Origin: Nemertoderma westbladi
Lineage: Eukaryota; Animalia; Xenacoelomorpha
Direction of reading: 5' to 3'
Assembly: GCA_032718475.1 (NCBI GenBank)
Contig: JAUCBJ010005647.1
Coordinates: 1 to 53,957 of the forward strand
DNA length: 53,957 nt
Position 1 is the stretch's first letter. Each line of letters starts with the position of its first letter. Below are positions 841 to 39,468 of this stretch, one piece after another. Both the position numbers and the translations under genes were made by a program. The notes under the pieces are model-generated. The model was given only the letters and a program-made list of their open reading frames with translations, did not search any database and had not been told where the DNA came from.

Positions 841-2968
841 ATGACGGAATTGATAGAAGATGACCTTGGTATTAGAGAGCGATATACTCTACCTTTACAA
901 GCGTTTGTGGATAGCTTGATACGCGGTGAAGCCGATCCGACTATTACGGAGGACGATGGTCGTTATATCGAACCGCCGATGTCCCAGGAACAACTTACGC
1001 GTGAATTGGACTATAGAAAATTCACCGCTCGCTATACGAATCGTAATGGTACGTATATGGACTTCTTAACTACCGGCCATGGGTATCGATGGATCGATGT
1101 TACCCCAGCCCGTTCTCGAGATGTTATTCAACGAAAGAATCATTAAAATCGGCTCAGCTGTTTACGGAGATCTCCAAAACGACTTTCGGAATATGGAGAA
1201 TATCCCCTATCCTTTCGTGGATACTCAGCTGATAGCTCCTTGGGCCGAAGGCCGAGGTTTCTTTCGCACCATGTATGCTAATGTGTCTAGCAATATTACA
1301 AAGGTGCAACGAACTTCCATCGGACATCTTGCCTTTCAGGAATACGGGTGGAATTTCAAGGTCGGAAATCCCATCAACTATCAATAAGTATACGGAGACC
1401 ATTATTCTCGATTATACTTTGACGGACCGTTGACCGCACCTGGCGCCGTGTATAGCTTCATGAGTGTTCCACTCCGTCCCTCCTTAGCTATCTACACGAT
1501 CTTCGAAAACACCGCACTTTCCGGTTGGCTAGCCGATGTGTGCAGTCGTACTATACGCGCCCATCCATTAATCCTTGGGACCAAACTCGCTAAGCTAGAT
1601 GAACATAATAAATTCATCCGCTTTGAATGTTTCCGACGGTTTTTAACCCCGTTTCGCAACGTGGATAGCCAATTCAAAGACCGCGCTTTGACCAAGCTCA
1701 GCTTAAGAGACTCGGCTGCGGAGAAGTTAGATAGCGCTGGATTCGCTATTTTCAGAGACATTTGTGTAATAAACCTGCACTCCTCGGTTATCCAAAGACC
1801 TCGGATCCCCACCGGTTATTCTGTCGTGGAAATTCAGACGGTAGGTCCACTTGAGGAGACGGCCATGCCTACCTCAACTATACAAGGGGAAGACGAACCC
1901 ATATGTTTAGAATCTGAAGAGATTCAGCCCCCCACGTCTCGGAGTAGCGATAGCGACTACATATTGGAATGGTATCAAGGTCCCCAGTGTCTTACTGCGT
2001 ATGATTATCGCCATGCCAATTATGTTTCTAGACAACGTTGTCGGCTGTGCGCATCGAGAGACCATATTACGTCTATGGACACCAACGATCTTTGTTCCTA
2101 TTTCCACGAGCAACCGTCGATGGAAATCTATTGTGCATATTGTCGGCTTAATAATTTGCACATTTTTGCTGTCTGCCCCCAATTTATGACTCAATGCCAT
2201 CATTGTCAATTAAAAGGACACGCCAGCTTTGATTGTCCCTTTAACCATGATTTAGAGAGCGTAGATGAAATGATTGTACTACGTTATATCAGAGCTTGGG
2301 AAGCGAACGCTGATTTACATTGTGATTCACGCCATCGCTATTATCCTGGACGCGCTTACGAAGGAGTTTATGCGTTCCATCCTTATTTGTTTGCCTCCGT
2401 CGAGCAGAAATCGCGCCTATCAAGTTATGAACTATTGAAGCGCGTTGGAGAATGTATTTCAACCAAATATGTACGCAAATTTCTCAGGAGCATTAATCCG
2501 AGTGACATCCATTCTTACAACTTAATAAACTTTATCCGTCAAGACCCTGCCTATGGAGACTTATTCGTCAACTCACACCCTGAGTTACAAGAAGTATATC
2601 GACGGCCTTACGAGTACCGAGCCCGCGAACGCGAGTTGGAAAGAACCATTAAACCAAGGAAGTTTCTAACTACCTATGGTCCACCCACGGCCCTCGTGCA
2701 GACCACTCGTACAGGACCCGTAAGAGCGGCTGTCTTGAAACGAGCTCTCAAAGCCGTTAGACCCCTCTCCCCGGACGTTGATGTCAATCAACCCGGTACT
2801 TCGACCGGCGGATATACCGATCGCAATCCCATACCTTCTGATGCAATCATATTGCACCCTTCACCCAGGAGTTATAGCCCTCCTCGTAAAGTGGCTCGCC
2901 CCAAAGAGAAAAGGACTCTTGCTAGCTTTAAAAAACTGCGTAAACGCCGTCCGCGCAAGAAAGACTAA
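841..2968 (+). pseudogene. Extra 3' ORF of LTR family A: DEDDy/WRN-like 3'-5' exonuclease + 3 CCHC zinc knuckles (disrupted)
   Basis: ORFs 841-1146, 1079-1387 and 1430-2968 join through one frameshift and an in-frame TAA (1385-1387). Exonuclease-like motifs LPQPVLEMLFNERIIKIGSAVYGD, FVDTQ and LAIYTIFE. Knuckles CRLCASRDH, CAYCRLNNLHIFAVC and CHHCQLKGHASFDC. Collinear with 24785-27335 and lies directly upstream of an LTR. Confidence 0.7.
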
Positions 2969-14075: not shown

Positions 14076-14195
14076 CTTATGTTCGAAACGGATTTACAAT
14101 CTTAAACGGCACTTATTTCTCATACATAACGAAGTTAAGGATTCTAATTCAATAAATTACTTGATGGCAAAGGGTCGCAATGCCGAGACGAAACG

Positions 14196-14739
14196 TGTTA
14201 GCTTATTCAATCCCGCTAACACCCCATAAAGTTATAAGCCGATAAGCAATATTGGGAGCCACGAGATTGGGTAATTAACCAACTCGTGCCATCCCAATAA
14301 GAATGGGAAGGAGAAGCACACAATGAGGGTCAGGGGCCAAACCCCTAACCCAGAGAGAATAGGTGGAGTGAACGGGAACACTCCAAAGGGCGCCAACAAG
14401 GGTATCAACCAATCAGAGGGGGGAAAGGCATCGATTAGGTAGAGTAACAAGGCCAACCGTGCAATATAGCCACTTGGCAGTAATCATACCAGTTCAGTTA
14501 TCTCAGTGCAATACCGGTGCTAGATTAGGTTACAATAGTTTAGCTAGGGAAGGACCGGGACTTTAGTTACCGTATCCCGCCTTCCGTATACGACAATATA
14601 TCTCATACCTATATCTATATCTATATCTGCATATCATATTATATACGACAAACAGTACAAACTCATTTACTCTTTATACACGGCGGGGACGCGTGAACTA
14701 AAACCGGATAAACCGGGATCCCTCTTGGATCCCGTCACA
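14196..14739 (+). repeat. 5' LTR of family B (544 bp)
   Basis: Identical to the 3' LTR except one substitution seen and a 288-bp insertion in the 3' copy. Confidence 0.95.
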
Positions 14740-14748
14740 GTAACTAAA
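14740..14748 (+). promoter_or_regulatory. Non-tRNA primer-binding-site position, complementary to own LTR (14562-14570)
   Basis: GTAACTAAA is the reverse complement of TTTAGTTAC. Confidence 0.6.
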
Positions 14749-14805: not shown

Positions 14806-17800
14806 ATGAGTCAGTCGGGAGAAATAACACCGACGCGGACCCCGGACGAAGAACAAACGATCCGCGAGGCCGCGACCAGGCGGTATAGGCCCACGACGCC
14901 GGAGCCATCGATAACGGGCGACCCGGAAGTTCAAGATGAGGGAGACCGTCTGGAGTCAGAAGCCGAGTCGAGAGGAGGGGGAATCGAGTCGGAGGATAGA
15001 GAGAACGGGCTCGAGGGAGAAGGAGACGAGTCGACACGGGGCGAGGGTCGACGCACCGGTGTCGTCGGCCAGCCACAGGCCGAGAGCGACGAACGGCCCA
15101 CCGAGACGATGACAGTGGGGCCGACGGTACGAGGAAGGACCCGGAGAGACGACGGAGGTGTCGATACCGATGTCGCCGGCCAGCCACAGGCCGAGGGCGA
15201 CGGACGGCCCGCCGAAACGGCGACGGTGGGGCCGCCGGTACGACGTCGAACCCGGAGAGACGGATGAGGGGTCGGCGACGAGGACGTCGGGGTTTCTGAG
15301 CGACTTCGACGGGCCTACAACGCGACCCGGAGACTACTAGAGGAGGCCAGAAAGGGGAAAACGATAGACGAGGTAAAACTGAAGTCAGGACTAGGTAAGT
15401 CGGACAGACATTTATACTATCTAATGCATTTCGGGCAGAGAGAATTGGCCGAGGAGAGAGCGAGAAAGGTTGCCGAGGAACTGTATGACTCATGGCGGCA
15501 TGGGGGTATACAACCTAGTGTAGTGTACATAGGGCCATATTTAATCGATGCCCGGGGTATAAAATTAATGGGTTGGAACAGACCTGAAGGGGGCGAATCC
15601 GAGGTTAACCCCGAGGATTCGGCCTCGTCGGTCGGAGGGAGTTCCGGGAGGAGGGGGAAAGCTAGTAGATCGGGAAGGCGGAGGGAGTCCGTCGTAACCG
15701 ATAAGTCTGCTACATCCTCCGCGAAAGAAAGACTGGTGAGAGAGGCAGGTGCCGCGTACCGTCTCGAGCTGATAGAGCAAGGTCAGAGGGAAATGGATAA
15801 ACGGCTAGAGGAGGGGAGAATGCGGCTAGAGAGGGAAGCGGCATTGATTAGAGAAACCGGAGAGAGGGCCGAAAGGGCTTTGAGAGGCCTTAGGGAGTGT
15901 GAGGAAATAGAGGAAAAGGAGTGTAGGGAACGTGAGGCAAGAGAGGAAAGGGAACGCAAAGAGCGCGAGGCGGAACGCAAGGAGCATGAGGCGAGAGAGG
16001 AAAGGGAACGCAAAGAGCGTGAGGCGGAACGCAAGGAGCATGAGGCGAGAAAGGAAAGTGAACGTAAGGAGCGTGAAGCGAGGCGAAGGGAGAGTGCTAG
16101 GAAAGTAGTAGAGTTGGCTGAGCGGGACGCGCGGGAGTGTGAGAGGAGAATGGCAGGAGCCGAGCGAGACCATGAGGAATTAAAGAGACGCCAAAGTGAG
16201 CTTGGGGAACATAGGGTTAGACGCGCGCACGAGCTGCAACTGGTGCGGGCGGGGGCGTCTGAGGGCGGGACTGGCTCGAGTATTCTAGGGGAGCCAGGGG
16301 CCGTGGATACATTTATTAATACCCCACTTGCAGGGACCGCACGACAGACCCAAAACTGGTGTGACCGTACGGGCGGGGGGGGGGGGGGGGTAACAATGAT
16401 AATGATACAGTAGACGTGGTTAATATTAATAGTACCGTATGGGATAATTCTAATCAAACCTTTATTGCAGGGAATACTTTGCCTAGTGGTAGTAATTTAA
16501 ATTTAAATCAGAACAATCTTAATATTAATGTAGAAAATAATCCTAATATTAATGTAGCTACGCAAAATAATCCAAATAATCAAAATAATAATAATTCAAA
16601 TAATTTAATTAATGATCCAAGCCCGAATTTACAAAGTAATTCAGACAGTGTAGTCGTGCAAAGTAATTCAAATGATTTTGTTTCAAACGAACAAATTAAT
16701 TCTGTATCCGATATGGGTGCTATTAACGTAAACACGTCGGGCGTGTACAGCCAGGCAAACGGGGACCTGGCAGGCCACACAGTTGGTGGGCCGGAAGTAG
16801 CTGGGTTAGGTAGACCCAGCGAGGGCCTGGTAGGCCACGCAGTTGGTAGACAGCGAGCAGAGGGCCTGGTAGGCCACGTAGTTGGTAGGCAGGGAGTGGC
16901 TGGGTTGAATAGACCCAGCGAGGGCCTGGTAGGCCACGCAATAGCAGAGGGAGAGGCGGGGGTGAATAGACCCGACCGCGATAGGGTTGATGTGTCGACT
17001 AGAGAGGGATATAGTAGCGTAGTGAGGGATAGCGAAGTTAGATGTGGCGAGTGGGGGGGGGGGGCTACAGGGGCCCCACAACAGCGAGTTCGCGGCGAAA
17101 GGGGGGGGGTGTGCAGAGAGTGTCCCACAGCCGTCAGCGGATAATGCGAGGGCCAAAATAGGTAAACCGCAACAACCGGCGACGGAAAGTAATAGGGGGA
17201 TTGCGAGTATCCCCAGCGGCGTGCGACCGAGCAGAGAGAGACAGGTTGACGTCGTGGGAGGGCGGACGAAGCGTCGAGCCCGATCAGAAGAGGGAAGAAG
17301 AACAGTGGGGTTTAACCGGGAGGTCGACGAGAGATCTCACGAGCGGGAATACTCCACTGAAAGGAGAAGAAGAGAGGATAGTAGTAGAGGTATCGCCGCG
17401 AACGATAGAAGAGCGAGGACGGATAGCGAGCCGTCGGTGGTCGAGATGAGAACAGAGAGTCAGTGGGGTCGGACTCCGGGAGATTGCCGTCGCCCCGGAG
17501 AGATGCGACCCGGCGAGGCGCACTACACGCCGAGAGAGGGGTACGCGATGTACCGGTACGAAGATGAAAACAGTAGAGAGGGGGGTCGAAGAGAAACTTT
17601 CCGACGGAATATACCTACCGATCGAGGATACGGTAGCCGCGGGGGGGACTACTCGAGAAGAATAAACTTCGATCCCGAACAACACATGCAGACTGTAGGA
17701 CATACTGTAGGCCTTACTGCACATACCACAGGCCATACTGAGAGAGGCAATGTAGGCGATAGGATAGCGTGGACAACGGGATTAAACCCGGAAGTCGCGG

Positions 17801-20800
17801 AATACATACCGGCGAGTAGGCCAGAAGCTGATAGGCCTATACCGGTACCAGTACGGCAGTATGACTACAGCATGCAGGGACATAACATATACCCAGGGGA
17901 GGGGGGAATCATTGCGGATTGTTGCATGGGCCCCAACATATTAACATCAACCCCAGTACCAAACATACCAGTGGGGGGGGGGACAGGGTGACATTCCCCC
18001 ATCACAATATCAACAATATACCCCGATAGGAGCAAGAACAACGAGACCCTTGGATGAGAATAGGTCGTGTGATACAGACATATGGAGGGGGCCGCTACCC
18101 CCGATGACATACCCAAGTCAGAGAAAGTCAAGAAATAGGACAGACGGAACGCACCAGACAGGAGAAACTATACAGTACCCATCGAATCCATTGGAAGCAC
18201 AGGCGATGGGGATGGCCACGTTGATCGATGCGTTGAAAACGAGGATCGAGTTACCACCCGTGGAACCATTCAAATTCGATGGGAGCAGGCCGGAAGAATA
18301 TCTACAGTTTCGGCGCATGTATAGTAACGAAATACTAACAAAAAACTTGACGCAGGCGGAGTGCCTAAAGTATCTACAAGTGTACACGGGAGGCCCAGCA
18401 TACGACATAGTGAGGCAATATCAAGGAATAGAGGGCGGCTTCACGACAGCATGGCGGGCACTGGATAGGGAATACGGGCACCCGGCCAAGATCATCAGAC
18501 AGACGTTGAGAGGCATAACATCGGGTGGCCTACAGGATAATCCCGTTAGCATTAAGACATTTGCTAACAAAGTTGAAAAGGCGCTAATCGTGCTGAAGAC
18601 GCTAGACGCGCCATACGAGCTCAACGCGTCCAACAACATCACCACGATAGCGCAGGCACTACCGAGCTGGCTGCGCAACAAGTGGAGGAAAATCGCCTTC
18701 TCCACTCGAGATAAGAAGGGTGCGGAACCGGGTTTAGAAGAAATGTCAAACTTCTTAAACTACGAGGCTGAACTAATAACTGACCCAGTCTATAGCGAAG
18801 ATAGCCTGGGAAAGGGACCTAAGACAGACTACCATAGACCGAAACCAGAGCACAACACATCAAACGCATTACCGAGACTCAGGCAATCATTGCCATATGC
18901 AGCGATGCAGGGGACTGCAAGTCCACAGCTAGCCGAGGATAAGACAACACCATGGAACGGACAGGGAAACAATAACAACACGAATAAACATGACCCCAGT
19001 ACGTCCAGTAGGCTAAATCCAAACAATAAGAATAGTAGGGACTTTGGTACAAACGCAACTGCGATACGCAATGTGCTGTATAAAGAGGGCTACGACCCAA
19101 AGAGCAAATGCCAGCTACACGCAAATGCGCTTCATCAAACCATGAACTGCAGGTACTGGCAGGCGCTACCTAGGCAAGATCAGATAGATTATGCGTTCAG
19201 CAATAAAATCTGCTCGCGATGTGTAATGAGTGGACATAGAGCAAGGGAGTGCAAGGAGAAGCCAATAAAATTTGGTCAAAGGAGAGGCCAAACGATGGCG
19301 ACGAGCACAGTAGGGGCGAAGAAGAGGGGAACGGTGTTACTTGGAGTAGTACCAGTGCGAGTGATCGGGGAAGGCAATCGATCAGTAACAACACTAATGC
19401 TGGTTGATAGTGGAGCTGCCTTCACATTAGTCGAGGAATGGGTGGCCGAAGAGATAGGATTGAGAACGAGGCCAAGCAGGATGGCGGTAACAACCATCTC
19501 TAGCAAAGATGAGATCCTAGAGATGAGAACAGGACGGTGCGCAATTGCAGCAGTGGCACCAGGATGCGACTATGGGGCAACCATCGACCCCATCCAAGTG
19601 ATAGAGTCAATTAATATTAATGCCAGGCGACCAACCAACATCGAGGTCGAGCAGTATAAATTCCTGGACGACATTGACTTCTCAATCCCAGACGTGGACG
19701 TTAGGAAGGTGTCCATCATAGTAGGCATGGACTGCCCAACGGCCCACGAAAGAATGCAAACGGTCTTCGGCGAAGACAAGCAGAGTGACCCGGTGGCCAT
19801 ATTAACACCATTCGGGTGGACGCTGAGTGGTCCAATTAAGAGCAAGATACCATTTAGGATGTCAGAGACATCAGGATGCATGTTCGCGGGAACAATGCAG
19901 GAAATGGGTGACGAGGGAGCAGAGGAGCAGCTTAAAAGACTGCTCAGACAGGATTTCGAGGGACTGAAAGAAACCGGGGTCGGGACCTCGGTGGAAGACA
20001 AGCAGGCTTTACAAAGCGTGGAGGAATCGATGACATGCGATGAGGGGCGGTATACTATAGGAATGGTATGGAAACTACCGAAGATACCGCTGCCCGACAA
20101 TAGGGGGATGGTACTCACGAGACTCCGCAAGCTGAAACAAACACTAAAACGGAGCCCCGAGAAGAATGAGTACATCTACAGGACGATTAAGAAGTACGTC
20201 GAGAAAGGATGGGCCGTGGAGTTACCGGTCGACGAGCCGAACACGGACAGGACATATTACCTGCCACTACACGTGGCTTTAGATCCAAAGAAAGGTAAAC
20301 TACGGATGGTAGTCGACGCATCGGCAAAGACCGACGGAAAATGCTTAAACGACTACCTGTTGGAAGGCCCAAACATATACAATTCGGGCATAGAGGTGTT
20401 ACTTAGATTTAGAAACGGGAAACACGCCTTCACGTGTGACATAGAAGGCATGTTCAACCAAGTCCGTGTAACAGAGGAAGATAGCGACAGTCAACGCTTC
20501 TTATGGTATAACGGCGAGGAAGAACCGTCGATAATACCGGCATATAAGATGGTAGTACAAAACATGGGGGCCAAGTCGTCTTCATTTACGACGACTATGG
20601 CAGTGAGAGACACAGTGAAAGGGAAGGAAGATAGATAGAGCAGTAGGGCCGTCGATATGATTCGACGCGGCTTCTACGTAGACGACGGAATGGAGTCTGG
20701 AAATACGGTTAAGGAGATACTGGACACAGGGCGCGAGGTTCGCGACATCCTAAAAGGATCCGGCTTTAACCTGACCAAATTCCAATCCAGTTCGGAAGAA

Positions 20801-23314
20801 TTTATTAAGGCGATAGAGGACAGGAGACCAGAATCGACCATGGACAATCCCACAACAGCCAAAGGGCAGGACATGGCGATTAAGAGAACAGAATCTCAAC
20901 AGAAGGCATTGGGAATCGTGTGGAACAGGGAGACAGACGAACTGAAGTATCAGCTGAACCAGGAGGGCGCAGACATCCACACGAAGAGGGGCTATGTATC
21001 GTATATAGCAAGGATATACGATCCCCTAGGCCTAGCATCCCCATTATTAGTCACGGGGAAACAGATACTCAAGAGAGTATACAAACTGAAGGATGAGTGG
21101 GACGTAGAGGTACCAGAGGAAATCAAGAAACAGTGGAGCAAGTGGACAGGAGACTTGGAGAAGATGGGAACATACAACTTGCCACGGGTGTATTTCCCGG
21201 ATGGGAACATGACGAATGTGGACCTACACATGTTCTCCGACGCGTCGTTGGAAGCGTACGGAGCGGCACTCTACTTAGTACAACGAGAGGGGGCTCATAA
21301 GCCAAGACTAGCCTTTAGTAAAGCAAAGTCAACGCCACCGGATTCAGCATCAGTTCCTAAGTTAGAACTGACAGCCGCGAGACTAGGGGTAAGAGCCACA
21401 GCCTACCTAGTGGATACTATTCCCAGCATAGTGGAGACACACTACTGGACGGACTCCATGGTAGTGCTTGGTTGGCTACACAACGAAAGAACGAGATACC
21501 CGATATTCGTCGCGAATAGAGTGGACGAAATAAGGGTGAGCACAGAACTGGAAAGGTGGCACTACTGCCCAACGGACGAGAACCCAGCAGACTTGTTGTC
21601 GAGGGGCGTGGTACGCCACACTTTCTTGAAGAAGGAAGTATTGTGGCAACATGGGCCACAATTTCTGAGCGATAAGGAAGCCTGGCCGCCGATGAGGAAG
21701 GTGGACCCGGGCTCGGAAGTAGTATCAGAAGGAGAAGAGGGAGATTCAGAGGGAGAAGAGATATACTCCCAGATGGTGAGGGAGATTAGGGACGTGCAAC
21801 CAGGACGGGAACTGTGCGATAACCCGACGGATAAACTCCTCAGCTACAGTTCTAGTTGGTATAAGACCATGAAACTAGTGGCGTACTGGAGAGCCTTCGG
21901 GAATTTCCTTGCGGGAGTTGGCAAGGACAAGAAGATCAGGACAACCATAGATCTGGAAGGAGCGGCCAAGGCAGTGATCCGCTATGAACAACGGAAGAAC
22001 TACGGCGACGAGGTGGAACGCGTCGGTAACTAACAGCACCTCCGACGGGACAGCGAGCTGATTACGCTGTCGCCACAACTCAATGACGACGGGATTCTAG
22101 TAATGAATTCTAGGGTGGGATACAACAACAGCATAGTCGTACCACCGAAACCTATCATCATTCCTACAGGATCGCCAATAGTCCACCAGATTATATGGGA
22201 CTCCCACAAATCGATATTGCATGGGGGCACCAACCGAACCCTCACAGAGATAAGGAGGACCTATTGGGTCAAACAATTAAGGAAGAAGGTTAAAGCGGTA
22301 GTGGGGCAGTGCCAGACCTGCCGACGAGCGAAGAAGGAGCGAGCCGTACAGGAGATGGCGCCACTACCGGCGAGTAGGGTAAGACAGCACGACCCGCCAT
22401 TTACGCATTGCGGTGTGGACATGTTCGGGCCGATAAAGATCAAAGTGATGCGACACACGGAGAAACGCTACGGCATTATCTTCGTATGCAATAACACACG
22501 GGCGGTAGGGATAGAACTCGCCCAAGATGCAACCGCATCAGCATTCATTAATGCCCTAGAAAGATTTAGAGACCGCAAAGGTGGGACGATCGCAGTGATA
22601 TACAGCGACAACGGCACCAACTTTGTGGGCGCAGAGAGTGAGATGGCAGAGGCCTTGGACATCTTGGAGGGAGAAGAAGTCAGGGCAGCCATGAGACGAC
22701 GACAAGTAAAGTGGGAGAGAAGGACGCCGTATGCACCACATACACTAGGATGCGTCGAGAGACTGGTGGGCAGTTCAAAGCGTCTAATGACGAAGCTAAT
22801 GAACACCCACATGGTCACTGAGGACGTCTTACGGACAGTACTTGCGAAGTGCGAGGGGATCATTAATAGCAGACTGCTATATCCGGAGAATGATGACCCT
22901 GAGTCATTAGACGTGCTGACACCTAGCCATTTCCTGATGGAAAGGCCAGCGACCATCGATATGCGGCGTGTAGACCCAGATGACATACACTCCCGCCAAA
23001 GTTGGAAAGTCGCTAAAGCAATAAGCGCAGAGTATTGGAGGAGGTGGGTCGAGGAATACCTACCCACACTCCATAAACGAAGCAAGTGGAGGAAGTCAAA
23101 CAGGGAGTTAAGAGAGGGATATCTCGTAATCGTTACGGATGATACTATCATCAACAACCAATGGCGGTTGGCGAGAGTAGTAGGCACCTACTCCGACGAG
23201 GACGGAAGAGTCCGATCGGTAGAAGTACGGATAGGTGGAAAGATAGGTGCGAAGGACAGAAAAACCTACAGGAGAGCTGTAGGCAAATTCTGTCTGTTAG
23301 AAGGGGCACCTTAG
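14806..23314 (+). pseudogene. gag-pol: BEL/Pao gag-pol polyprotein with frameshifts and nonsense codons
   Basis: Gag knuckle CSRCVMSGHRAREC; protease LVDSGA; RT YYLPLH, RMVVDAS, DIEGMFNQV, YVDD; RNase H FSDAS, LEL, WTDS, NPAD; integrase H-H-CC, GVDMFGP, SDNGTNF, ERLVG, WRRWVEEYL. In-frame stops at 20636-20638 and 22031-22033, and several gag frameshifts at poly-G runs. Confidence 0.95.
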
Positions 23315-23435
23315 TGGAGTTAGAGAAAAGTTTAGTCGTCCAAGTTTTGGACTGAGGGGGGTGGGATTGAGGGCGAGACGTCCTTCCCACAAACAAAAAA
23401 AAAAAAAAAATAATAATAAAATAAAATAATAGTAC

Positions 23436-24310
23436 ATGGTAGGTACGCAGTTAGTAGGCAGAAGTTAGTTAAGAGGTACGTAGTACCTAGTTAGTTAGTT
23501 AGTTAGAAGGTACGTAGTACCGATAGTTAGTTAGAGAGTTAGAGGGTACGTAAGTACCGCTAGTTAGTTAGAGTTAGAAGGTACGTAGTACCTAGTTAGT
23601 TAGTTAGTTAGAAGGTACGTAGTACCGATAGTTAGTTAGAGAGTTAGAGGGTACGTAAGTACCGCTAGTTAGTTAGAGAGTTAGAGGGTACGTAAGTACC
23701 GCTAGTTAGTTAGAGAGTTAGAGGGTACGTAAGTACCGCTAGTTAGTTAGAGAGTTAGAGGGTACGTAAGTACCGTTAGTTAGTTAGTTAGAGAGTTAGA
23801 GGGTACGTAAGTACCGCTAGTTAGTTAGAGTTAGGAGGTACGTAGTACCTAGTTAGTTAGTTAGTTAGAAGGTACGTAGTACCGATAGTTAGTTAGAGAG
23901 TTAGAGGGTACGTAGTACCGATAGTTAGTTAGTTAGTTAGAAGGTACGTAGTACCTAGTTAGTTAGAGAGTTAGAGGGTACGTAAGTACCGCTAGTTAGT
24001 TAGAGAGTTAGAGGGTACGTAGTACCGCTAGTTAGTTAGAGTTAGAAGGTACGTAGTACCGATAGTTAGTCAGAGAGTTAGAGGGTACGTAGTACCGATA
24101 GTTAGTTAGAGAGTTAGAGGGTACGTAGTACCGATAGTTAGTTAGAGAGTTAGAGGGTACGTAAGTACCACTAGTTAGTTAGAGAGTTAGAGGGTACGTA
24201 AGTACCGCTAGTTAGTTAGAGAGTTAGAGGGTATGTAGTACCGTTAGTTAGAGAGAAAGTAAGAGTCAGAGGGTACGTAGTACCGTTAGTTAGAAGAGAG
24301 AGAGTAAGAG
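23436..24310 (+). repeat. ~30-bp tandem array between pol and the extra ORF
   Basis: Unit approximately GTTAGTTAGAGAGTTAGAGGGTACGT(A)AGTACCGCTA, roughly 25 copies. Confidence 0.92.
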
Positions 24311-24784
24311 GTAAAAGGGGATATAGATATAGATATTAGTTAGCAGTTAGTAGAGAGAGGGGGGCATATGAGTACAGCTGGGTAAGTCGTGTGGCCACAC
24401 GACGCATACTGCTGTACTGCATAGGCCAGAATACAGAGTAGGCCAGAATGTGGATTAGAGAATAGAATAATCCATAGGCAGTAGTAAGTAGTAGGACAGT
24501 AGAATCAAATTAAATAAATAAATAAATAGAATAGGGCTGAAAGTTACAAAATAGTGGCAACACAAGGGAAGTTATTCTAGAACATAATAAAAGTAACGGA
24601 CAGAAATTGTAAATTACGCTCATTTACTAGCTTCAAAATTAATTAGTGATAATTTAGGTTAAAAGGCGCAGTTAAGTAGGAAGTAGGCCATTATCGAACC
24701 GTACAGAACATCCTAGATACATCACTCATCTGTATTGCGCCTTGGTAAGGCACCACCTTGCAGGTGAGCGAGTGAACGTTCGGA

Positions 24785-27335
24785 ATGGCGAGTAAGTTGA
24801 TCAGAAATAGAAAAGCGGAGTCAGGAGGAAAGGAGATACTGGTGGATTTCACCGAGAGGCATCCGGAAGAGAAGACGAGAGGATACTACGAGAGGTTGGA
24901 AAGGGGTCACGCGGCGCGAGCACTGCAAGATCACTTCAGGGAGATGCACGAACAGCGGCTGGTCGGGACCTACGGGACGCCGTCGCTGGACAACGCGATC
25001 TTCCAACACTTCCACTACGTGGTGAGAGGGGACGAGGCGAAGTTCGGGATTCCGAAGTACCCGAGGGAATCACCGAGGAAGGGCTGGAAGAGATTCATAG
25101 AGTCCGTCAACAGAGGAGGATATATGATCCTAGACGACGAGGGAACCGTGGAAGACGAGGCGGGTTCGAGACGAGGAACGGCGGGGTCGGCCAGGACCAT
25201 ACTCCTACATTTGGCCACGCCAAATGGGGACATCTTCTTATTCGACCTAGGGACGTATGGGAAGAAGGACAGGCCGAAATTAAACCGGTTACCGAAAGTG
25301 GTACAAGTCTTAGTAAGAGAGAAGTCGACGACGAAAGTGGGATCGGCGATTCGCGAGGACGCGGAGAGGATCATCAGTCCGGACGCCACCAACCTCCTGG
25401 ATATGCAGAAAGTCTTTATGGCTATGACGGCACCGGATGGGTTGGGGGTAGTCGAAAACACAGGCCAAAGCGGGGCAGTGGCGATGGGCCAATCATTGGG
25501 GCTCGTATGCCACAAACCGATGGACTGGGGGAAGTTTAGGGAAGAATACGGAGCAGAACTAGCGAACTCGCTAAAGTGGGGAGCGAGACCGGGAAGGCAG
25601 GAGGTATATCAGTTCCGAAGGGGAGCGATAAAGGTATATCAGAAGCGATATATCCTGCAGGAGGACTGGATGATGATAAGTTTGCTTAACTTATTCATGA
25701 CCGTGGTTATCGAGAGGGAACCAGGGGCATTTCTGTTATCGGGATCACCCCTAAGCTACAGGAGAGCCTTTAAGACGGCCTTTGACGATCTGGTAGACCA
25801 CCCGGGGCTGAAGGGCGAGTCGGTGTACTACAACAGCCGACATCTGGTAGACGGGGAGACAGATACACCGTATCAGAGATGGGAGCAGCTAGAGACGGAT
25901 AGACGAGAAGCAAAGCGACTGGAAGAAGTCGCTAGACGGGAGAGGATAGAAGCAGAGGAGAGGGAAGAGGAGGCAGGGACACAGAGTTACGGCTTCAAGG
26001 AACAGGCAGGCCTAGACGAACTTCATTGGACTTCATCAGGGAGTTCGGAGGAGTCTCTAGGGCGAGAATTGGGATGGACGGTGGGATCGCCGAAACAGTC
26101 GACGTCGGGGTTGCAAACAATGCCCATACCAGCGGGCGCCGAGGGCGACCAACCGCCAAGGAAGTTAAGGGAGCTAGAAGGATGGAGAGCTACGGGCGAG
26201 AGCCAAGGCGGGAAGGGACATAGTGGATCCATCGGGATACCGGGGTTGGAGACACTACCAGAAGAGGAGGACGACGACGATGAGTTCGGAGAGATGCCGC
26301 CCATCGAGAGGATAGGCCACTCGGACATGGACTGGGTTGGCGGAAGGGTGGTGACTGCCAGTGGGGCAAGGGCCTTCTGGAACAGATCCGGCAAGCGGAC
26401 CTGGGTGCACGAGGAGTGTGGCGATGGATTTCGCGGGGAGCACCATCAGGTTGGGCGAGCAACCGGGGACGACACCACGGATAGTATTCGGGGAGACGAT
26501 GCCCGAGAGGGGCGGAGAGATCGACGTAGATAGAGAGACCAACGTAGAGAAGTTCGCCTACCAGCTACTCCACAGACCGCGGAGATCGCTTGGGACGAAA
26601 GACGAGGTGGGACGGGAGACATTGGTACTCGGCTGCGACTACTGTGGGAGACAGACCCATCGGGAAAGCAGCTGCCTATACCGGTTCCAAAAAGGAACCT
26701 TTTGTCTCTACTGCAGAGAACCAAGCCACAGGATGGGGGCGTGTCCACGGTTGCATAACCGATGTCCAAAGTGCCACTTTCGGGGACACTACGGACGCGA
26801 GTGCGACTGGATGAACGACGAGGAGAAGTTCACAAGATTCGAGGAGTGGGCCGACGTCGGGGCCATGACGCGCCAGCGCATGAAGGCCCAGGAGTTCAAG
26901 TGGGGTTTCTTCCTTATCAATCAGGAGACTCACATGGAAATCATAAAGCGGAGGCTGCCGTTTACCTACCAAGAGGTAGCAACGGCGGCGTCGTACGCTG
27001 GAGTGATGAACACGCAAAGATATTTGGACAGGTGGACGCCAGAGAACCGAAGGGAGTTTAGGGATTTCTTGGCGGAGCACGTACCAAAGGCAATGAAAAT
27101 GATCCTATGGGACGCCACCAGAGGGAGACAACCGGGCCACTCTGAGGGGCCACCGGCGAAGCGATATCGGGCACTAATAACACCAGCGCCCAAGGAGCCA
27201 ACGACCGGGATCAGCAAGGAAGTAGCGGCGAAGGTCCGAAAGCAGAAAGCGGATGATGCCAGAGGAACGGTGATAACCAAGAAACGGCCCAGGGAACAGG
27301 ACGCCAGGGGGAACTATCCCCAGAGGAACAGATAG
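24785..27335 (+). CDS. Extra 3' ORF of family B: DEDDy-like 3'-5' exonuclease + triple CCHC knuckle (two overlapping frames, probably one frameshifted gene)
   Basis: ExoI MILDDEG, LLHLATPNGDIFLFDL, LPKVVQVLV..KVGSAIRED (ExoII), LLDMQ and QKRYILQE (ExoIII-like). Then CDYCGRQTHRESSC, CLYCREPSHRMGAC and CPKCHFRGHYGREC. Confidence 0.78.
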
Positions 27336-28050
27336 GTTCCCAGAGTCGAGGGATAGAGACTGAGACTTGGACGTGGTGCGCCTGGAAGGCGCCGCGTGGG
27401 ACGTACGAACTATTAAGTACAAGTTTAATTAATGCAAATAATCATATAAGTGCAATTTGTATGTACGTATGTAGTAATTAGTAATCTACGAATATATACG
27501 CTGGGAGTAAGTACTATAGTCATACAACCTTTCTCAATTAGCTACTGGGACTGGGGGACAACTGACTATGGCACTATGGACGAGACACCAGACGATTTCA
27601 CACTTCTTGAGTGCGACGGCACAAGAGGGGGGGGGGGGGGATTCGTCAGAAGGGATGAGGTAGTCAGAGTAGGGTTGAGGGACAGAGTAGTTAGTGCGAA
27701 GTGTGGAGAGAGTGCGGACGCAATTCTAGTGTGGGGGGGGGGAGAATAAGAGGCTGAGTGAGGGACGAGGAGGTCCGAGTGTATGAGAGAGTTAGGATGA
27801 GAGTGAAGAAGAGATAGGGCGGAAGTGTTGGGGAAACAAAAGTTGTGTGAGAGGTGAGCGTGATCGGCCCGACATGAGACGCCAGGCACACAGGGTAGCG
27901 TTATCATACCCATAGGGAGCGGCCTGGAAAGCCGGCTCCGAGAGAAAAGAATTCCACCCCACACCCGATACTAGATCGGGATCCAGCGGGATTGTAGCGC
28001 ACTTTTTGGTTGATGCTATCTTCTTACCGGGAAGATAGCATGGGGGGGAG

Positions 28051-28882
28051 TGTTAGCTTATTCAATCCCGCTAACACCCCATAAAGTTATAAGCCGATAA
28101 GCAATATTGGGAGCCACGAGATTGGGTAATAAACCAACTCGTGCCATCCCAATAAGAATGGGAAGGAGAAGCACACAATGAGGGTCAGGGGCCAAACCCC
28201 TAACCCAGAGAGAATAGGTGGAGTGAACGGGAACACTCCAAAGGGCGCCAACAAGGGTATCAACCAATCAGAGGGGGGAAAGGCATCGATTAGGTAGAGT
28301 AACAAGGCCAACCGTGCAATATAGCCACTTGGCAGTAATCATACCAGTTCAGTTATCTCAGTGCAATACCGGTGCTAGATTAGGTTACAATAGTTTAGCT
28401 AGGGAAGGACCGGGACTTTAGTTACCGTATCCCGCCTTCCGTATACGACAATATATCTCATACCTATATCTATATCTATATCTGCATATCATATAGGTTT
28501 AAATGAGTTAGAATGGGCTATATTCCGGTTTAAATAGTTAAAAAATTCAAAATTTACATGGCAATATAATTATGATCATTAAACATATTAATATTAACAT
28601 ATTAAACTATATTAAACTTTATTATTTTTAAACCAGACGTTCTGAAGATTTTGAAATGCATTAACGTTTTTAATATCTGGTTTACTTATTTATTTGTTTT
28701 TAATTACTTTTAATAATTTAATGTTTAATGATCATAATTATATTGCCATGTAAATTTTGAATTTTTTAACTGCATATCATATTATATACGACAAACAGTA
28801 CAAACTCATTTACTCTTTATACACGGCGGGGACGCGTGAACTAAAACCGGATAAACCGGGATCCCTCTTGGATCCCGTCACA
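28051..28882 (+). repeat. 3' LTR of family B, with secondary insertion 28495-28769
   Basis: Matches the 5' LTR. The insertion is flanked by a 13-bp duplication CTGCATATCATAT. Confidence 0.95.
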
Positions 28883-30209
28883 AAACGTAAGTTAGTTAAA
28901 TGTACGGTGGAAGGATGTGTATCATATGTACGACGATATATGCGGACCACCTAAACAGGGTTCATAGCATTCCCCGTTATGCAATAGAATCTGAAGACAA
29001 ATCCCCAATTTCCAATCCTGAACGTCAGCAATATTTACGAAATCCGGGGCGTTTTTCCATCCCCTCACCCCCATCAATCCCACAAGGTCCTCTACCAGTA
29101 ATTCCACAGTTTAAACTTTATTTGGATAGTCCTATGTCGCGAGTTTCTGATGATGTTACGAAAAGAATGACCCTATCGTATTGCATACATTTTTTCAACT
29201 TAATGCAGAAATGTCTTACTACTGATGATATGTTTGAAACTGATAACATAGTGAATACTTTTGTGCTCGTGAAGGAGGAGAAGGTGCGTGGGGGGAAAGT
29301 GAGACAGGCTACAACATTAAATATGTATCTCCAACGCCTGATTAGCTTTATGGATTTTTCAGTTATTAATAATGATTTAAGACTGGAAAGGTCCCAAATT
29401 ATAGCTGCAAGAACGACTTTAAAATGTCTGGTAGCCAATCAACGAAGTTTATTGAAACGACACCTGTGGCAAATAAGGGCGGAGGCAACTAAAACGATGC
29501 CGACAGCAGATGAACTTTTGCGGTTTGAAACTGCCCCTCTCAGTGGGCCAATTCGCAGCTCAATTAATCTTCTAAAAACTGGTGTTAAAGATGGAGGTGT
29601 TCCGCTATGGAGTATGCAAGCTTGGTTGATGTTGGGGCTTTCTCTGTGCCATGGGAATCGATCTTGCGGAGTTATTAACATGACACTAACTGAATTTGAT
29701 AACGCATTCAAGAGAGAAGATGGTTATTGGATGATAGACGTAACAAACCATAAGACTGGGAGTCAACATGGTCCTCAAACCTTTATGATCTCACCAAGTT
29801 TATTTGAATTGTTAGATATCTGGGTCAAATTTGGACGTAACAGTTATTCGTATACTATTAATGCCCCTCTCGTATTCCTCACGAAAGCTGGAGAGAGATA
29901 TATGTGTATTACGAACAAGTTAAATCGTTTATGGAAAAAATGATACCCTAGTTCCAAATCCAAAGCCGGAACAACAAGTATCCGACACAGTATAAGTTGT
30001 TTTAACCAGCAATACCCGGGAATGGAAGGAGATCAGAACAGGGTTGCGAAACTAATGGGACATTCCTTAGTTTGCCAACGTAAAGTTTATGACGAAGTCA
30101 TAAGGCCCAACCAAGCAAAAGAAGCAATTGGCCGAATAAGACATGCTGTAGAGTATGCTGCCACTGGTTCTATCAGCCTGAGAGAGAACACCATAGAGTT
30201 GCCCACCAA

Positions 30210-30362
30210 TTCTGACCTACTTAAAGATTGCCCTGCCGATTCTGACCCACTTAAAGATTGCCCTGCCGATTCTGACCCAGTAAAAGATTGCCCTGCCGAT
30301 TCTGACCCAGTAAAAGATTGCCCTGCCGATTCTGACCTACTTAAAGATTGCCCCGTCGATTC
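30210..30362 (+). repeat. 30-bp coding repeat (DSDPxKDCPA x5) in the YR C-terminus
   Basis: Direct inspection. Confidence 0.88.
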
Positions 30363-31015
30363 CAACAATGTTAAACTAGACCTTACTTCTATTTTAACGA
30401 CAGTTTCTGGAGAACGAATCTATAATATCAGTATTCCTTCTACATCTACCGAACCCCTACCGTCAGCGCGTCATCCCCGCACTATTTGGTCGACAAAAGA
30501 AAACACGAAATTAAGAAGTCTATTTAGTTTAACCGATAGAATTACGAAGGAGAAATTTAAAGCTTGTCGGGAGCACGTCCCGCCCCGCCTCCCCGTAACT
30601 CCAGTCTTCAGTATTAACTACTACTACATTTTAGTAGTAGTCACTTACAGTAGGTTCCAATATTTATTTCGTCAATATTAATATTTTTCTTGTTAGACGT
30701 TTTGGAAACTTGTATAGTTGCTATATATGTGCATATATTTTTTTCTGTAAAAAAAAACGTTTTGGCTACAAGGAATATATATATATATATATACTTACTA
30801 TACGATGTATGTATGTAAGTAAGTACGTACAATCTAGAGTTCGTATACAAAAGTATACATTGGGAACATATTTCATATACCTAATGTATACTTTTGTATA
30901 CAATAAAAAAAACAACATTGGAAAAAATTTTTTGAAAATTTTTTCATCAAAAATTATTATTTGGTGTATAATTAACCCATTAATTAACAAGACCAACCAA
31001 TTTTTTTTTCCTAAA

Positions 31016-33274: not shown

Positions 33275-35577
33275 AATTTATTTTACAGTTGAATGCCTAT
33301 CACGATAATAACAGTTAAAGTAAGTCTAGGGGAAATCAGTATCAACTGTCAGTCTCGTAGTTACTGATATTGCTACTCAATGTAACGTGGTATATATCTA
33401 GTATTAGAATACCGGTATACACCTATAGTATATATAACAGTATTATTACAGACTATGATCAGTCACAGAATACCGGTATATAAGTTTAGCCTAATTTATA
33501 TAAATATATAATAAGCTTACTTTAAACACTGGTAATGTCAATAATGTAATAATAACTGATTATCCAAATTTTAGGAATTATTTCCCTTTACTTTATGACT
33601 GATATTAAGCAGTAGGTTCAACTGATATTAAGACCTAATTGATGTATAACAGGCCTATTAATTTATAAATCTGATTGAGTTAATTTATAAATATATATAC
33701 CCGTAATGGGTTTTGTCAATATTTGAAATAAATGTTATTATTTCTACACAGAGGCTGGACACTCTCAGTGGAGTGATACTTGTTAGACACTAAATACTGA
33801 TAATTCTACCTAACTAAGTTACTTATCACTACAAATTACTTACGTATCGGGTTGAGATTACACAATCTCTAAATAAACAATGAACAAGTTACACGTACAA
33901 TTTTTAGGGTAATTTAACAAGAAATTTACGAACCAGACTAACAAGGAGTTAGAATTTCTGGTTCTTACAGACTGACAGGAATTACGGTATTTTGAAACCA
34001 ATAAAGTAGTATTCAGTACGTTGTGTTGTCCAGATAAGGAAATGCCAACGTCTGACGGCTTATAGTCTACACACTAAGCACTACGTACCCGGAGTGTCCT
34101 ATACCTAGAGATTAATTATCAAAGCCAACTATAGCTAACGGACCTATTAACCACATTACAACACAAATATACTGCCTACGCACTAAATTACTTTCAGGAA
34201 AGCACTGTACTCTAAACCCTAAATTAGGTACTAGCACTTATACTACGTATAACTTGCAGTTAAATATACATGAACAGCCAAAAGAACCACGGTATCTGCT
34301 GGAGTGATCGGAGCACTAAATCACCAGTCTGTCCTACGCCAAGCAGTCCTGAAGTAGTACCAGGGTTAATTTAACTATAACAGTATGCATAACAAGCATA
34401 ATTACTGTAAGGGATAAACTTGGGGACATGAAGGTTGCAATTACTTGCATAAACTCTGAATAATAAATATTACGCTACCCGTACAGACTATTCAAACAAA
34501 ACACAGACCAAATGCTGGCAGACTACTGTCAAGCCTAAATAAACCACAGTATATGCAATCTCCGAAATGGTTAGTTAGTAAGCGTTCTAGACTACGTAGT
34601 ACGACTTATTCCTTCGTGGAGGGTTTACCTTATAGCACTGGATGCCTCCACTTTCCTAACTAGCACTTTATCGGACAGACACTCTATATACACTGCAATC
34701 GCCTCAGACCTAACAACAATCAGACAACAATCCGGCCTACAAGTTATTTATATAATCTGAGCAGGCTTACACGCCTTCTGCTCAATATTACACTTACAGA
34801 TAAATAAGCCAACAGAAATAAGTAAAATCCTAATAAAACCAGGGCTGCAGTCCCTGATTAAATATTAAGACCTACCGGTATATAATTATCGCAATCGAAT
34901 TAATACTGCTGTAAGTACCGGTTCGGGTCAGGCCTACAGTTTACCGTCCGACCAGTACGTTTTGGGTTTATTGCCTACTGGGCAATAAAAGAAACAAAAT
35001 CTATTAATGTTTGCGCTTTTAGACCTTTTAGCAGTTAACCTGCCAAGTTAAATGTGCCTTTACTTATAAATCGACTTTTGCCCTTACCAATTACCTGGTC
35101 TACTGAATTTACATCCACCGAAGCCAGTCCATGCGCGGCGTATGACCCACTATATGGGAGACTGGATTCGGGTCCAGAGAAAGTTATTATGGTGTAGGCT
35201 ACTTTGTATTATTCATTTGATCGCTACTATATAATCTCCAACAACTATATTTACTTTCGGGGAAATATTACCAGTTCCTTTAGGACGTGGCGCTTTAAGT
35301 ATAAAACAGAGTTATGACTTACACTAATCACAACTAGATGGCTACATAGCGCATTCTTTAGGAGATGCTTTATTAACCTTCACATGACTTCACACTACTT
35401 CACACTAATTTGCTGACCATCACTGACTTTTATCATATATAAGGAGGATTGCAACTGACACACGAAGGTATTATGAAATAGCATTTAATCCACACAAAAA
35501 CCACTATAATTTGAGTTGCAGTTGCTACCGGTAGACCCTTCTGCTTACCTGAGTAATTAAGAAAGTTGAGGGGTTAA

Positions 35578-37111
35578 CCCTATTAAACCCGGGGGAGGGT
35601 CAATATGACCCCCCCCCCGTGGTTTTTTTATTATAATTCTGAAACAAACGCAGTTGGGAATCTGAAATTTTTTGACTTTTCCTAAAAATCTAATGTCTTT
35701 CAAGTAGTGAAAACCGTTTTCAAAAATATTGGGTACTTTTCGAGTTATAGCACCATTTTTTAACCCTACTTTTGGCACTTTTTTTGAGACGTTTTTTGAA
35801 AATTACATTTCATTAAATATGAATTGTAACATCTCTATTTTTGATTTACACCGGTTTTTTGGTGTTAGAAATTTGATGGAATTCATATAAATTGATTTAG
35901 AAATTTCAAACTTGTTTTTTTCGGTGGGTGCCAAATTTTGGTGCCAACACCAAATTTTGAAATAAGTCAATTTTGTAAATTGATCATTTGAAACTTGTTT
36001 TTTACGCAATTGGGTTTTTGGGTTTCTGGATTCGATGAAATATATACGAGTTGCACCAAACGTATCAAACTTGTATTTTTCGGTGCTGTGTGCAAATTTT
36101 GGTGCTAGCACGAAAATTTGAAAATCCAATCAATAGATAAAATTGCTTGTGACAATTTATTTCTTGCGTTTTAGAGGTTTATAGCTGTTCTGAATTCAAT
36201 GGAAAATATAATTATCGAACTAGACATCTCAAACTTGTATTTTTCGGATGCGGGTGCAAAATGTGGTGCTAGCACCAAATTTTGAAAACCATCAAATATA
36301 TCAATTGATTGTGTCACCTTGTTTCTTGCGTTATACGGGTTTGTGATGATTCTAAATTCAATGGAATCAGTAAAAATTTCATAAGAGTTCTCAAACTTGT
36401 ATTTTTCGCCGGTGGGTGAAAATTGTTGTGCCAGCACCAAATTTTGGAAAATATGCAAATTGATAAGTAGATAGTATCACCTTGTATCTTGCGTTATACG
36501 GGTTTATGAGGGTCCTGAATCCGATGGAATCAATAAAAACAGCACTGGACATCGCAAACTTGTACTTTTTGGTGATGGGTACGAAATTTGGTGCTAGCAC
36601 CAAAATTTGCCAAATTACGCCGAAAAATACAAGTAGCAATGATCTGGCATATTAGAAATGTATTCCATTAGAATCAGCGCCCTCGAAAACCTGAAAATGT
36701 GAATTTATAGCATCGTATAAGTGAATTAAAAATTTTGTGTTCTAACTGAAAAGTGCTGGTTACTTGTTTTTTTCATTTTTTTCCTACGCAGAGAGGACTA
36801 AACAGCCATTTATAGTAATCATATCATTTTTTAACATTTTCCAATGTATTTTGCACCCCTGAAAACCGAAAATGTAACTTTCAAATTTGGTGAAAATTGT
36901 GCACTACTTGGAATTTTGGTGCTGCAATATAACCACCCCAGTACATTTTTTCGAAAAATTTTTTTTTCGGTCGGATCCAGACAAGTGATACCTTCGTACA
37001 AACAAAAAATCGGACGTTTTCGTAAATATTTGTAGATTTTAGAGGGGGGGGTCAATATGACCCCCCCCCCCCGGTATTTGTACAACATTTTATAGCCCGG
37101 TACTAATAGGG
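35578..37111. mobile_element. Non-autonomous TTAA-specific (piggyBac-type) element inserted in LTR A'
   Basis: TTAA TSD (35574-35577 / 37112-37115), termini CCCTATTA...TAATAGGG and subterminal GGGTCAATATGACCC palindromes. Removing it restores the LTR. Confidence 0.85.
35860..36620. repeat. Five diverged ~160-bp repeats, each with an AAATTT-GGTGCTAGCACC-AAATTT-type palindrome
   Basis: CAAACTTGT anchors near 35908, 36066, 36230, 36392 and 36555. Confidence 0.75.
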
Positions 37112-37628
37112 TTAATGATTATTTATCGGTATTCTCCAAATATAACATCCATTAATATAAACAGCAATTAACAACAATATAAAACAGCATTAAAACAGTG
37201 CGGTGAACAGAGTCAGTATATGTTCGTGAAATATGTTATGAGTTATGATGTGGTGTTCGTATGCAACATAAAACAGGGTAATAGATTTACGTTCTTATAT
37301 CTCCAGCCATCAGATGTTCTTGGGCCAAAGTCTGAAACATCTGTACTTAGTACTGAATCCAGAAAGGAATTGGATTCTCAGAAAAACTATAACTGCACAT
37401 GCGCCAATTTCCACAGGTAGGTCTCTATTGGTATAACTGGGAAGATTGCTCTGATTGGCTGAATAGGCCCAAACAAAGAAACCTCCACGTACACAAATAA
37501 TCAGCTGACAGATTTCGTCATCTTGGTTCTAATTTCTGACCGATGCATAGTTGAACAATTTTAGGCCTTTTTAGAGTATTCAGCACATTGCATAAAAATG
37601 ACTTGTTATGTCCGCAAAACCTTTTACA

Positions 37629-39468
37629 GACATACCACGAGAGTAGTAGCAGGGTACATAGTGCCGTAAGAGGTAGAAGTTAGAGAATAGGGAGTGTAGT
37701 ATATAGACATACCATGAGAGTAGTAACAGGGTACATAGTACCGTAAGAGTTAGAAGTTAGAGAATAGGGAGTGTGGTATATTGACATACCACTAGAGTAG
37801 TAGTAGTATAGTACCGTGAGAGTTAGAAGTCGTGGGCACTGAGGGCGCCACATAGTAAGAGAGTAGAGAGTATGGTATGTAGGTATACCATAGAAGTAGT
37901 AGGGTACATATAGTACCATAAGAGTTAGAAGTTGTGGGCAGTGAGGGCACCACGTAAGTAAGTAGGAAGGTAGATATGATAATAGCACAGACAGGGGGAA
38001 AAAAAATAAATAAAAATAAAAATAAAAGTAAAATAAAAGGTTAGGGTAATATTGGCACGAAGGAAAGAACAAGGTAGGAGGAAGGCCATTACTGAACGAA
38101 ACTAGTAACATCTTGTTTAATGCCACTCACTTAAATTGAGCCTTTGTAAGGCCCCACCAATTGGGTGAGCGAGGGAAAGTTCATGATGGCGGAGAGGTTA
38201 GTAAAGAAGAGAAAGGTGGAGAGAGAGTGAAACGGGCGAGACCGGGAGTGACGAGTCATATCACCTCCGAGTTGGGGGGTTAAGACGCGTCATGTAGACG
38301 AGCATATAATATAATGTATATAATATATAATTATAATAATTAATTATATATATAGCTCGTATATATATTATATAATATATACCGTAGTCAAGTACAACCT
38401 TTTTTTCCAATTAGCTACTGGGACTGGGGAGTAATTGACTAGAAAGGCAGGACGAGACTTAGACGGATCCCACTAACATGATGCGCAAATGTGTGGGACC
38501 CAATAAGTGTATGGAGAATGAAAACGAAAATGGGGAATCGGGGGAAGTATGGAGAGGAGGTGTTGACATGCGTAGGAGTGAGAGGAGTGCAATTCAAGTG
38601 TGGGGAGCGAGCAGTAAGAGAGAGAGAGTAAGGGACAACGAGGTCCGTGAGAGAGGGAGAGTAAGGGACAACAAGGTCCGTGAGGGAGAGAGTAAGGGAC
38701 AGAGAGGTCCGAGAGTGAGATTAGAGTGAGGACGGAGAAAATTGTGTGAAGAGAGAGCACAATTGTTTCGAACAGAGACATCAGATACCTCGGTGCAACA
38801 TAGCTCGCGAATGCACCAAGGATGGGTAGTAATAACATACCCAGGGGGGTGGCCTGGAAAGCCGACCCCGAGAAAAGAACTCTACCCCACGCCCGATATT
38901 AGATTGTGTTCCAGCGGAATTGAAGCGCACTTAAGGTTGATGCTATCTTCTCTCCGGGAAGATAGCATGGGGGGGTCAAACCACCTTGGAGGGAGGACAG
39001 CTAGTAGAGGCTAGCAGCGGGGGGAAACACTCACAGGGAGTGCCAAAGTGACAATTAGTGTATTAGCCAATAGCGGGGAGGGAAGCACGTGATAAGAGAT
39101 AGGAAAGCATCCACTGGGTACAGAGGGCCAAGTACAGTAAGAGGTGAAACCAATATCTGTGTGTATCAATCATATATTATTCTGCATTACTGATTTACCG
39201 GTCAGTTCATTAGTTACAGAGTTGCAGACCAGTCATAGTTTATGACCGTCACCGCCACCAATTAATATCTGTATTTTCTGCATTACTGATTTACCGTATT
39301 ACTGATATACCGATTCTGTGCTATTGCCAATCGAAACATTAATATTGAGAAACTCAAACCACATTGTTTTCCCCGAAGGCCTTCGGCCAAAACAACTGTA
39401 GTGCAGCATCCCGGCGAAACGGTGACGCGTACATATCTAACCCGGTTGGGATCTACGATCCTGTCACA
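37629..39468 (+). mobile_element. 3' remnant of a family-B relative (B'): spacer repeats, start of extra ORF, 3' UTR, PPT, 5'-truncated LTR
   Basis: MAERLVKKRKVE at 38186 resembles MASKLIRNRKAE at 24785. 38390-38975 aligns to 27525-28050, and the LTR ends GATCCTGTCACA. Confidence 0.8.

Follow-up and report, generated by a model that had tools for sequence, protein, structure and literature searches.

What a nuclease-like gene does between pol and the 3′ LTR of a retrotransposon is the question raised by a BEL/Pao-type element of Nemertoderma westbladi (contig JAUCBJ010005647.1), in which such a gene, ORF3, stands in the env position of an element that probably uses its own RNA as primer. Exonuclease ORFs of retroelements were reported from rotifers with a proposed role only, and here a likely one is carried by a different LTR lineage. 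The analysis covers the whole 53,957-nucleotide stretch, called the window, together with related elements and sequencing contigs.

The element and the layout of its third gene

The main element (14196-28882, 14.7 kb) and its surroundings comprise the following features, all on the forward strand.

14191..14195 (left) and 28883-28887 (right), plus strand: 5-bp target-site duplication, from sequence
14196..14739, plus strand: 5′ LTR of 544 bp, TG...CA, by blastn against the 3′ LTR
14806..23314, plus strand: gag-pol with DUF1759, aspartic protease, reverse transcriptase (YVDD), Peptidase_A17/RNase H, integrase and DUF5641
23400..24340 (limits approximate), plus strand: tandemly repetitive non-coding spacer from pol to ORF3, from sequence
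24785..26533, plus strand: first frame of ORF3, 582 aa, with an N-terminal region, an exonuclease-like domain and an acidic low-complexity linker
26355..27335, plus strand: second frame of ORF3, 326 aa, with three CCHC knuckles and then a helical and basic tail
28042..28050, plus strand: polypurine tract, from sequence
28051..28882, plus strand: 3′ LTR

BEL/Pao traits are present in the TG...CA LTRs, the target duplication, the polypurine tract and a pol whose BEL-type domains run PR-RT-RH-IN. Of 1,329 integrase relatives, the 120 best, at 32-41% identity, all carry DUF5641, most of them Peptidase_A17 as well. By its domains and integrase relatives, a placement made without a tree, the element is assigned to BEL/Pao, as the original prediction had it. 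The LTR pair matches at 99.8% over 445 bp and at 99.1% over 116 bp (blastn), the 3′ LTR having an insertion between the two blocks. This copy of the element is recently inserted, yet broken in gag (frame changes and one stop) and in pol (stops at 20636-20638 and 22031-22033). The LTR insertion itself is palindromic and AT-rich, about 270-290 bp from 28495 (28495-28782), and its ends carry a short duplication. BEL/Pao gag has three zinc knuckles; a pattern search of the gag here gives two knuckle-like motifs. A variant genetic code was considered and rejected because TAG terminates both pol and ORF3 at their natural places.

ORF3 starts 1.47 kb past the pol stop (23314) and ends 0.72 kb ahead of the 3′ LTR (28051). 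It had been taken for a single gene frame from 24785 to 27335, which does not hold for this copy, where two different frames overlap. The break was checked in three DNA runs, with 9 or 10 contigs in all, and is private to this copy, because nearly all the summed contig depth differs from it in length at the overlap; the ORF3 of the family is most likely a single reading frame of some 850 codons. Since most copies are without the break, both a programmed frameshift and a layout of two genes are rejected. Deletions of the 3′ part of ORF3 are also seen in DNA contigs. The view that the gene is not env, for lack of a signal peptide or transmembrane segment, stands: hydropathy gives no signal or membrane-anchor segment in either frame, the highest 19-residue value being 1.3 in the first (the helix of the last motif) and 0.36 in the second.

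Among the listed differences between copies, those in ORF3 are synonymous in 14 of 19 cases against about 35% expected (p 6e-4), with shares of 10/11 in the exonuclease domain and 4/8 in the knuckle half, the share in pol being 5/8. The listing covers 40 of 2,708 differences, of which the 27 in pol and ORF3 were classed and the 13 in LTR, gag and spacers left out, and as the listed differences are clustered rather than independent, selection is indicated, not measured. The pattern indicates that ORF3 is a conserved accessory gene with signs of purifying selection.

An exonuclease-like domain, zinc knuckles and a sister gene

25070..25750, plus strand: DEDDy-like (RNase D/WRN type) domain of ORF3, by motifs, alignment and profiles
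26634-26675, 26703-26744 and 26763-26804, plus strand: three knuckles, by pattern

The four motifs on which the original prediction was built were all located in the N-terminal half of ORF3 (25127-25663): ILDDEG with the DxE at 25127-25144, KVGSAIRED at 25334-25360, LLDMQK at 25394-25411 and YILQE, the YxxxE motif, at 25649-25663. The corresponding residues are D117 and E119 for ExoI, D192 for ExoII, W265, and an ExoIII of the form L-x3-Q-x2-Y with Y289 and E293. When aligned with 53 bacterial PF01612 proteins (55 rows), ORF3 has the four acidic positions in register, as also the invariant Lys and Trp and the L-x3-Q-x2-Y, with an overall identity to these proteins of 12-19%. The Tyr-x3-Asp of ExoIII is altered, the Tyr being present and the last Asp replaced by Glu. 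The three predicted CCHC knuckles are exact CX2CX4HX4C motifs and follow about 320 codons downstream of the exonuclease-like domain.

Standard libraries are silent on the N-terminal half: no match was found in Pfam, NCBIfam, PHROGs or PDB sequences, and no relative among 1.84 billion representatives, in phage records or by word search. The knuckle half has no match within longer proteins. Scans of contigs turned up a single short BEL piece and no ORF3, and PF01612 occurs in none of the best 120 BEL polyproteins among the 1,329 integrase relatives, where a separate ORF3 would not show. Because the libraries give no match, assignment of the N-terminal half rests on targeted profiles and on a sister gene. 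The profiles were built from bacterial PF01612 loci. Against the 40-sequence profile ORF3 scores 6.7 bits, the best of 501 shuffled or reversed controls reaching 1.3; against the 70-sequence profile the match is weak (5.4 bits, best control 4.8). It ranks second of 262 natural sequences, after the sister piece, with two of four profiles (WRN-like and pooled), and is outside the top 7 of 262 with the RNase D-only and NrnC-only ones.

The sister gene belongs to family C, one of several related elements that share the window.

841..2968, plus strand: sister ORF3 of family C, an RNase D-like piece and three knuckle-like motifs
3047-4256: 3′ LTR of family C, downstream of the sister ORF3
49359-50563, plus strand: 5′ LTR of family C, 94.5% identical to 3047-4256
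34997..37629, minus strand: element F, a relative of C, its 5′ LTR split by a 1.5-kb insertion
37625..39466, plus strand: element E, a deleted relative of the main element

Though broken by one frame change and one stop, the sister ORF3 is the better recognized of the two: its piece at 1070-1384 scores 21.8 bits against an RNase D profile and matches TIGR01388 RNase D at E 1.5e-4, under the curated cut-off. The knuckle block common to both ORF3s scores 87 where the best of 1,000 shuffles scores 58, and the spacing from the Lys to YxxxE is 45 residues in each. Global alignment of the two exonuclease cores gives p 0.006, with limits chosen by the analyst, while local alignment of the two N-terminal halves is not significant. 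The ExoIII Asp is Glu in the sister as well, which keeps ExoII; the ExoI Glu is missing from its aligned position, a loss that may be private to that decayed copy.

An unguided model of ORF3, made with no alignment, has a pLDDT of 31 and no structural match. A guided one reaches 71 and superposes on RNase D with Z 12.6 and an rmsd of 3.3 over 174 residues, its structural neighbours being RNase D, diDNase, Nibbler, EXD1, EXD2, trypanosome RNase D and Egalitarian, the last being the top Foldseek row; that model is circular because DEDDy rows guided it, and it shows compatibility with the DEDDy fold only.

Taken at the level of sequence, the N-terminal half of ORF3 very probably has a DEDDy fold of the RNase D/WRN type, and catalytic activity is somewhat favoured. 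The predicted combination of a DEDDy-like exonuclease and a triple knuckle in the env position is upheld by the motifs, the profiles and the TIGR01388 match of the sister. Its closer specification as a WRN/RNase D-type enzyme fares less evenly, the register of the motifs and two of the four profiles agreeing with it, and the Glu at the ExoIII Asp and the other two profiles counting against it.

Other occupants of the window may be recorded here. Element E retains only the first codons of ORF3, with the 3′ UTR and a 3′ LTR that has TTAGTTAC at 39210. In another deleted relative of the main element (7142-10569, minus strand) two LTR parts of 444 bp enclose a stretch of gag at 73%, and the upstream one of these LTR copies lacks both its 3′ end and the primer site. 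The 5′ leader of family C (50564-52746), shared with element F, is AT-rich, 2.2 kb long and internally duplicated over 293 bp. The insertion in the F LTR (35592-37082, 1.5 kb) has repeated ends and internal tandem repeats and is likely a DNA transposon. For families C and F, pol lies outside the window and the gag pieces match nothing tested. Right after the main 3′ LTR, at 28900-30681, are two in-frame ORFs that by eye resemble a tyrosine recombinase, the first of them having no Pfam match. Also judged by eye are a LINE-like element with ORF1 and endonuclease/reverse transcriptase ORFs (39962-43824) and pieces that resemble exons of a host gene for a small, secreted, cysteine-rich protein (4750-6210). 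A satellite array with a 41-bp unit occupies 45179-47400; others lie near 11700-12400 and, as an inverted 32-bp array, at 12700-14050.

Primer sites complementary to their own LTRs

14740..14748, plus strand: primer-binding site of the main element, flush with the LTR end, without a TGG start
14562..14570, plus strand (second copy at 28417-28425): candidate self-primer, an LTR segment complementary to the primer-binding site
14529..14566, plus strand: candidate 38-nt GT-AG intron in the LTR, from sequence

The primer site of the main element does not have the form expected for pairing with a tRNA 3′ end, there being no TGG and the partner being its own LTR; it adjoins the LTR and is complementary to LTR sequence, as in the Tf1/sushi group. 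The pairing is of 9 nt, reached by 30 of 20,000 shuffles (p 0.0015). In family C a 13-nt site (50564-50576) is complementary to its own LTR at 49804-49816, to which none of 5,000 shuffles attained, and in element F bases 2-11 of the site (10 nt) pair with 37279-37288 (21/5,000 shuffles, p 0.004). The LTR primer segments of the three families all end in TTAC and elsewhere differ by matched changes. The main BEL/Pao family is thus read as probably self-primed. The expectation that ORF3 would co-occur with a self-complementary primer site is borne out in both families of the window in which the two features can be seen, the main one and C, which are probably related and so not independent cases.

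Among variants in read contigs, 3 of the 40 listed (of 62) fall in the duplex and two of these are partners of one base pair; one read run (X5) has one partner variant without the other, which weighs against a coupled change, and one partner variant, a common one, falls on the candidate splice acceptor. Removal of the candidate intron would create a junction that pairs with 12 of 14 bases of an extended primer site (29/5,000 shuffles, p 0.006). At this intron, the bases on the side of the junction are variable among other copies. The 9-bp duplex is predicted at -7.3 kcal/mol, with a probability of 0.06 to 0.5 when the stretch is folded, and the primer segment has a competing pairing with the U5 arm in a long hairpin (14562-14703), and the two alternatives may act as a switch. 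In both families examined, prediction leaves the first 30-60 nt counted from the primer segment with hardly any structure. Folding gave no position for the start of transcription. Side helices of the Tf1 type were sought in 15 duplex tests, of which none was significant (best p 0.06), a survey from which short helices could escape.

Possible roles and what is known elsewhere

Third ORFs of DEDDy type are known from the bdelloid LTR elements Juno and Vesta and from Athena/Terminon retroelements (PMC5408684), in keeping with the rotifer precedent invoked in the original prediction. In the available text of that report nematodes are not mentioned and such exonucleases are stated to be previously unreported in retrotransposons; RNase D-type enzymes are described there as processing the 3′ ends of structured RNAs, and RNA 3′ processing or silencing is proposed, without test, for the rotifer ORF3s. 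Those genes are like the present one in being RNase D-like, downstream of pol, without a membrane segment and with one acidic position as Glu, whereas their carriers are Juno/Vesta and Penelope-like elements, their altered motif is DEED as against a fourth-position Glu here, no knuckle array is described in them, and the report, as far as available, is silent on primer sites. The element shares with the Belpaoviridae its LTRs, polypurine tract, PR-RT-RH-IN order and BEL-type Pfam domains (PMC8742986; PMC3118150, PMC9094657, from the parts available). The ICTV profile gives an 18-nt tRNA primer site, a length of 4-10 kb and an optional env-like gene, with only tRNA priming and env-like third genes described, so that an element of 14.7 kb whose primer site is self-complementary and whose third gene is exonuclease-like differs from it on each count (PMC8742986). 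The literature searched, some of it available in part, contains no report of an exonuclease ORF or of self-priming in BEL/Pao, and as far as that search reaches ORF3 is an accessory gene unreported in the group. Nematode Cer elements are also said to carry a DEDDy ORF, and such a precedent may exist.

Tf1-type elements prime themselves from the RNA 5′ end by way of a three-helix structure, according to the portions available of two reports (PMC4600332; bioRxiv 10.1101/2022.12.06.519325). Like Tf1, Tf2, Tj1 and the wider Tf1/sushi group, the main element has a site beside the 5′ LTR that pairs with its own LTR and not with a tRNA. Those elements, as described there, are Ty3/gypsy chromoviruses with three helices, in contrast to a BEL/Pao pol and an extra exonuclease-like gene here, so the main element would prime like Tf1 and, as its pol is BEL-type, would fall outside the Tf1/sushi group.

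The leading reading, tentative as it is, has the ORF3 nuclease finishing an own-RNA primer derived from the 5′ LTR copy of the segment. This primer could be an imprecisely cut 5′ end of the RNA, or else a short LTR transcript, perhaps spliced; it would pair with the primer site, leaving an unpaired 3′ tail. The zinc knuckles would hold this single-stranded tail while the nuclease, working 3′ to 5′, would stop at the duplex edge, so that the trimmed 3′ end, from which reverse transcriptase could start, would coincide with the end of the LTR. A 3′-tailed primer would require such trimming because the duplex ends flush with the LTR. The nearest parallel is the RNase D of Trypanosoma brucei, which unites the same two types of domain, a 3′-5′ exonuclease followed by tandem CCHC fingers, binds the tail through the fingers and trims the 3′ tails of small RNAs (PMC7797062, from the part available). 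That enzyme is cellular and mitochondrial, with four fingers and a 28-residue linker in place of three knuckles some 320 codons downstream, and the likeness is of domain layout, with no sequence-level link. Primer finishing is also consistent with the nearly unstructured short RNAs predicted from the primer segment and with Tf1-type side helices being significant in no family. Against it, the 9-bp duplex is weak and in competition with the U5 arm, Tf1/sushi elements self-prime and, in the sources as available, have no such gene described, and the presence of DEDDy ORFs on the non-LTR Athena/Terminon elements indicates a more general role.

That commonness among unrelated retroelements lends some weight to a use against silencing, in which an active ORF3 would degrade or mis-trim piRNA or siRNA precursors and priming would proceed separately through RNase H, as in Tf1. 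The main family is abundant and recently active, and the guided model lies near Nibbler, EXD1 and EXD2, but those neighbours derive from a circular model and Rodriguez et al. (PMC5408684, in the text available) did not see copy number clearly linked to ORF3; the proposal is doubtful, if a serious competitor. It is unlikely on present indications, though close behind these readings, that ORF3 is instead a catalytically weak or dead RNA-binding adaptor, after the manner of Egalitarian, EXD1 or Maelstrom, for export, localisation or packaging of RNA. The Glu for the ExoIII Asp in both families, the sister copy without the ExoI Glu, Egalitarian at the head of the Foldseek rows, the three knuckles and the involvement of inactive DEDD derivatives in piRNA biogenesis (PMC5408684, same limits) would all suit an adaptor, yet D117, E119, D192 and Y289 are retained despite an overall identity of only 12-19%, and the residue lost from the decayed sister may be a private loss. 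The DEDDy family also has DNA-acting members, WRN and the proofreading domains of polymerases, and with a primer site flush with the LTR end it can be imagined that ORF3 removes mismatched or untemplated bases from cDNA ends, aiding strand transfer or giving a clean end for integrase; this is distinctly improbable, the best profiles and neighbours being mostly RNA enzymes.

Least probable, and very much so, is the scheme put forward in the original prediction, of a nuclease that chews the full transcript from its 3′ end back to the primer-segment copy in the 3′ LTR. The copy at 28417-28425 would indeed prime into U5, and the family C segment, which opens with TATAAA, could precede the transcription start, though TATA-like words have no common offset in families A, C and F. 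The nuclease would need to remove poly(A) and up to 169 nt in the main family, or about 580 nt in family C, across RNA predicted to be 52-59% paired. In LTR replication the 3′ repeat of the transcript is required for strand transfer. As both a long half-paired RNA would have to be crossed and the strand-transfer repeat would go, trimming from the 3′ end does not stand up well.

Returning to primer finishing, the broader supposition is that a BEL/Pao lineage has replaced the host tRNA primer by a short self-encoded RNA, which may be spliced within the LTR, and encodes an RNase D-like maturation enzyme that cuts this RNA to the exact primer end; it is speculative and rather unlikely. With ORF3 beside a primer site whose pairing is kept between families by matched changes, the substrate for a simple assay is defined, as is a genome-wide test of association. 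If the link between ORF3 and the primer is true, it would represent a new, tRNA-free start of reverse transcription.
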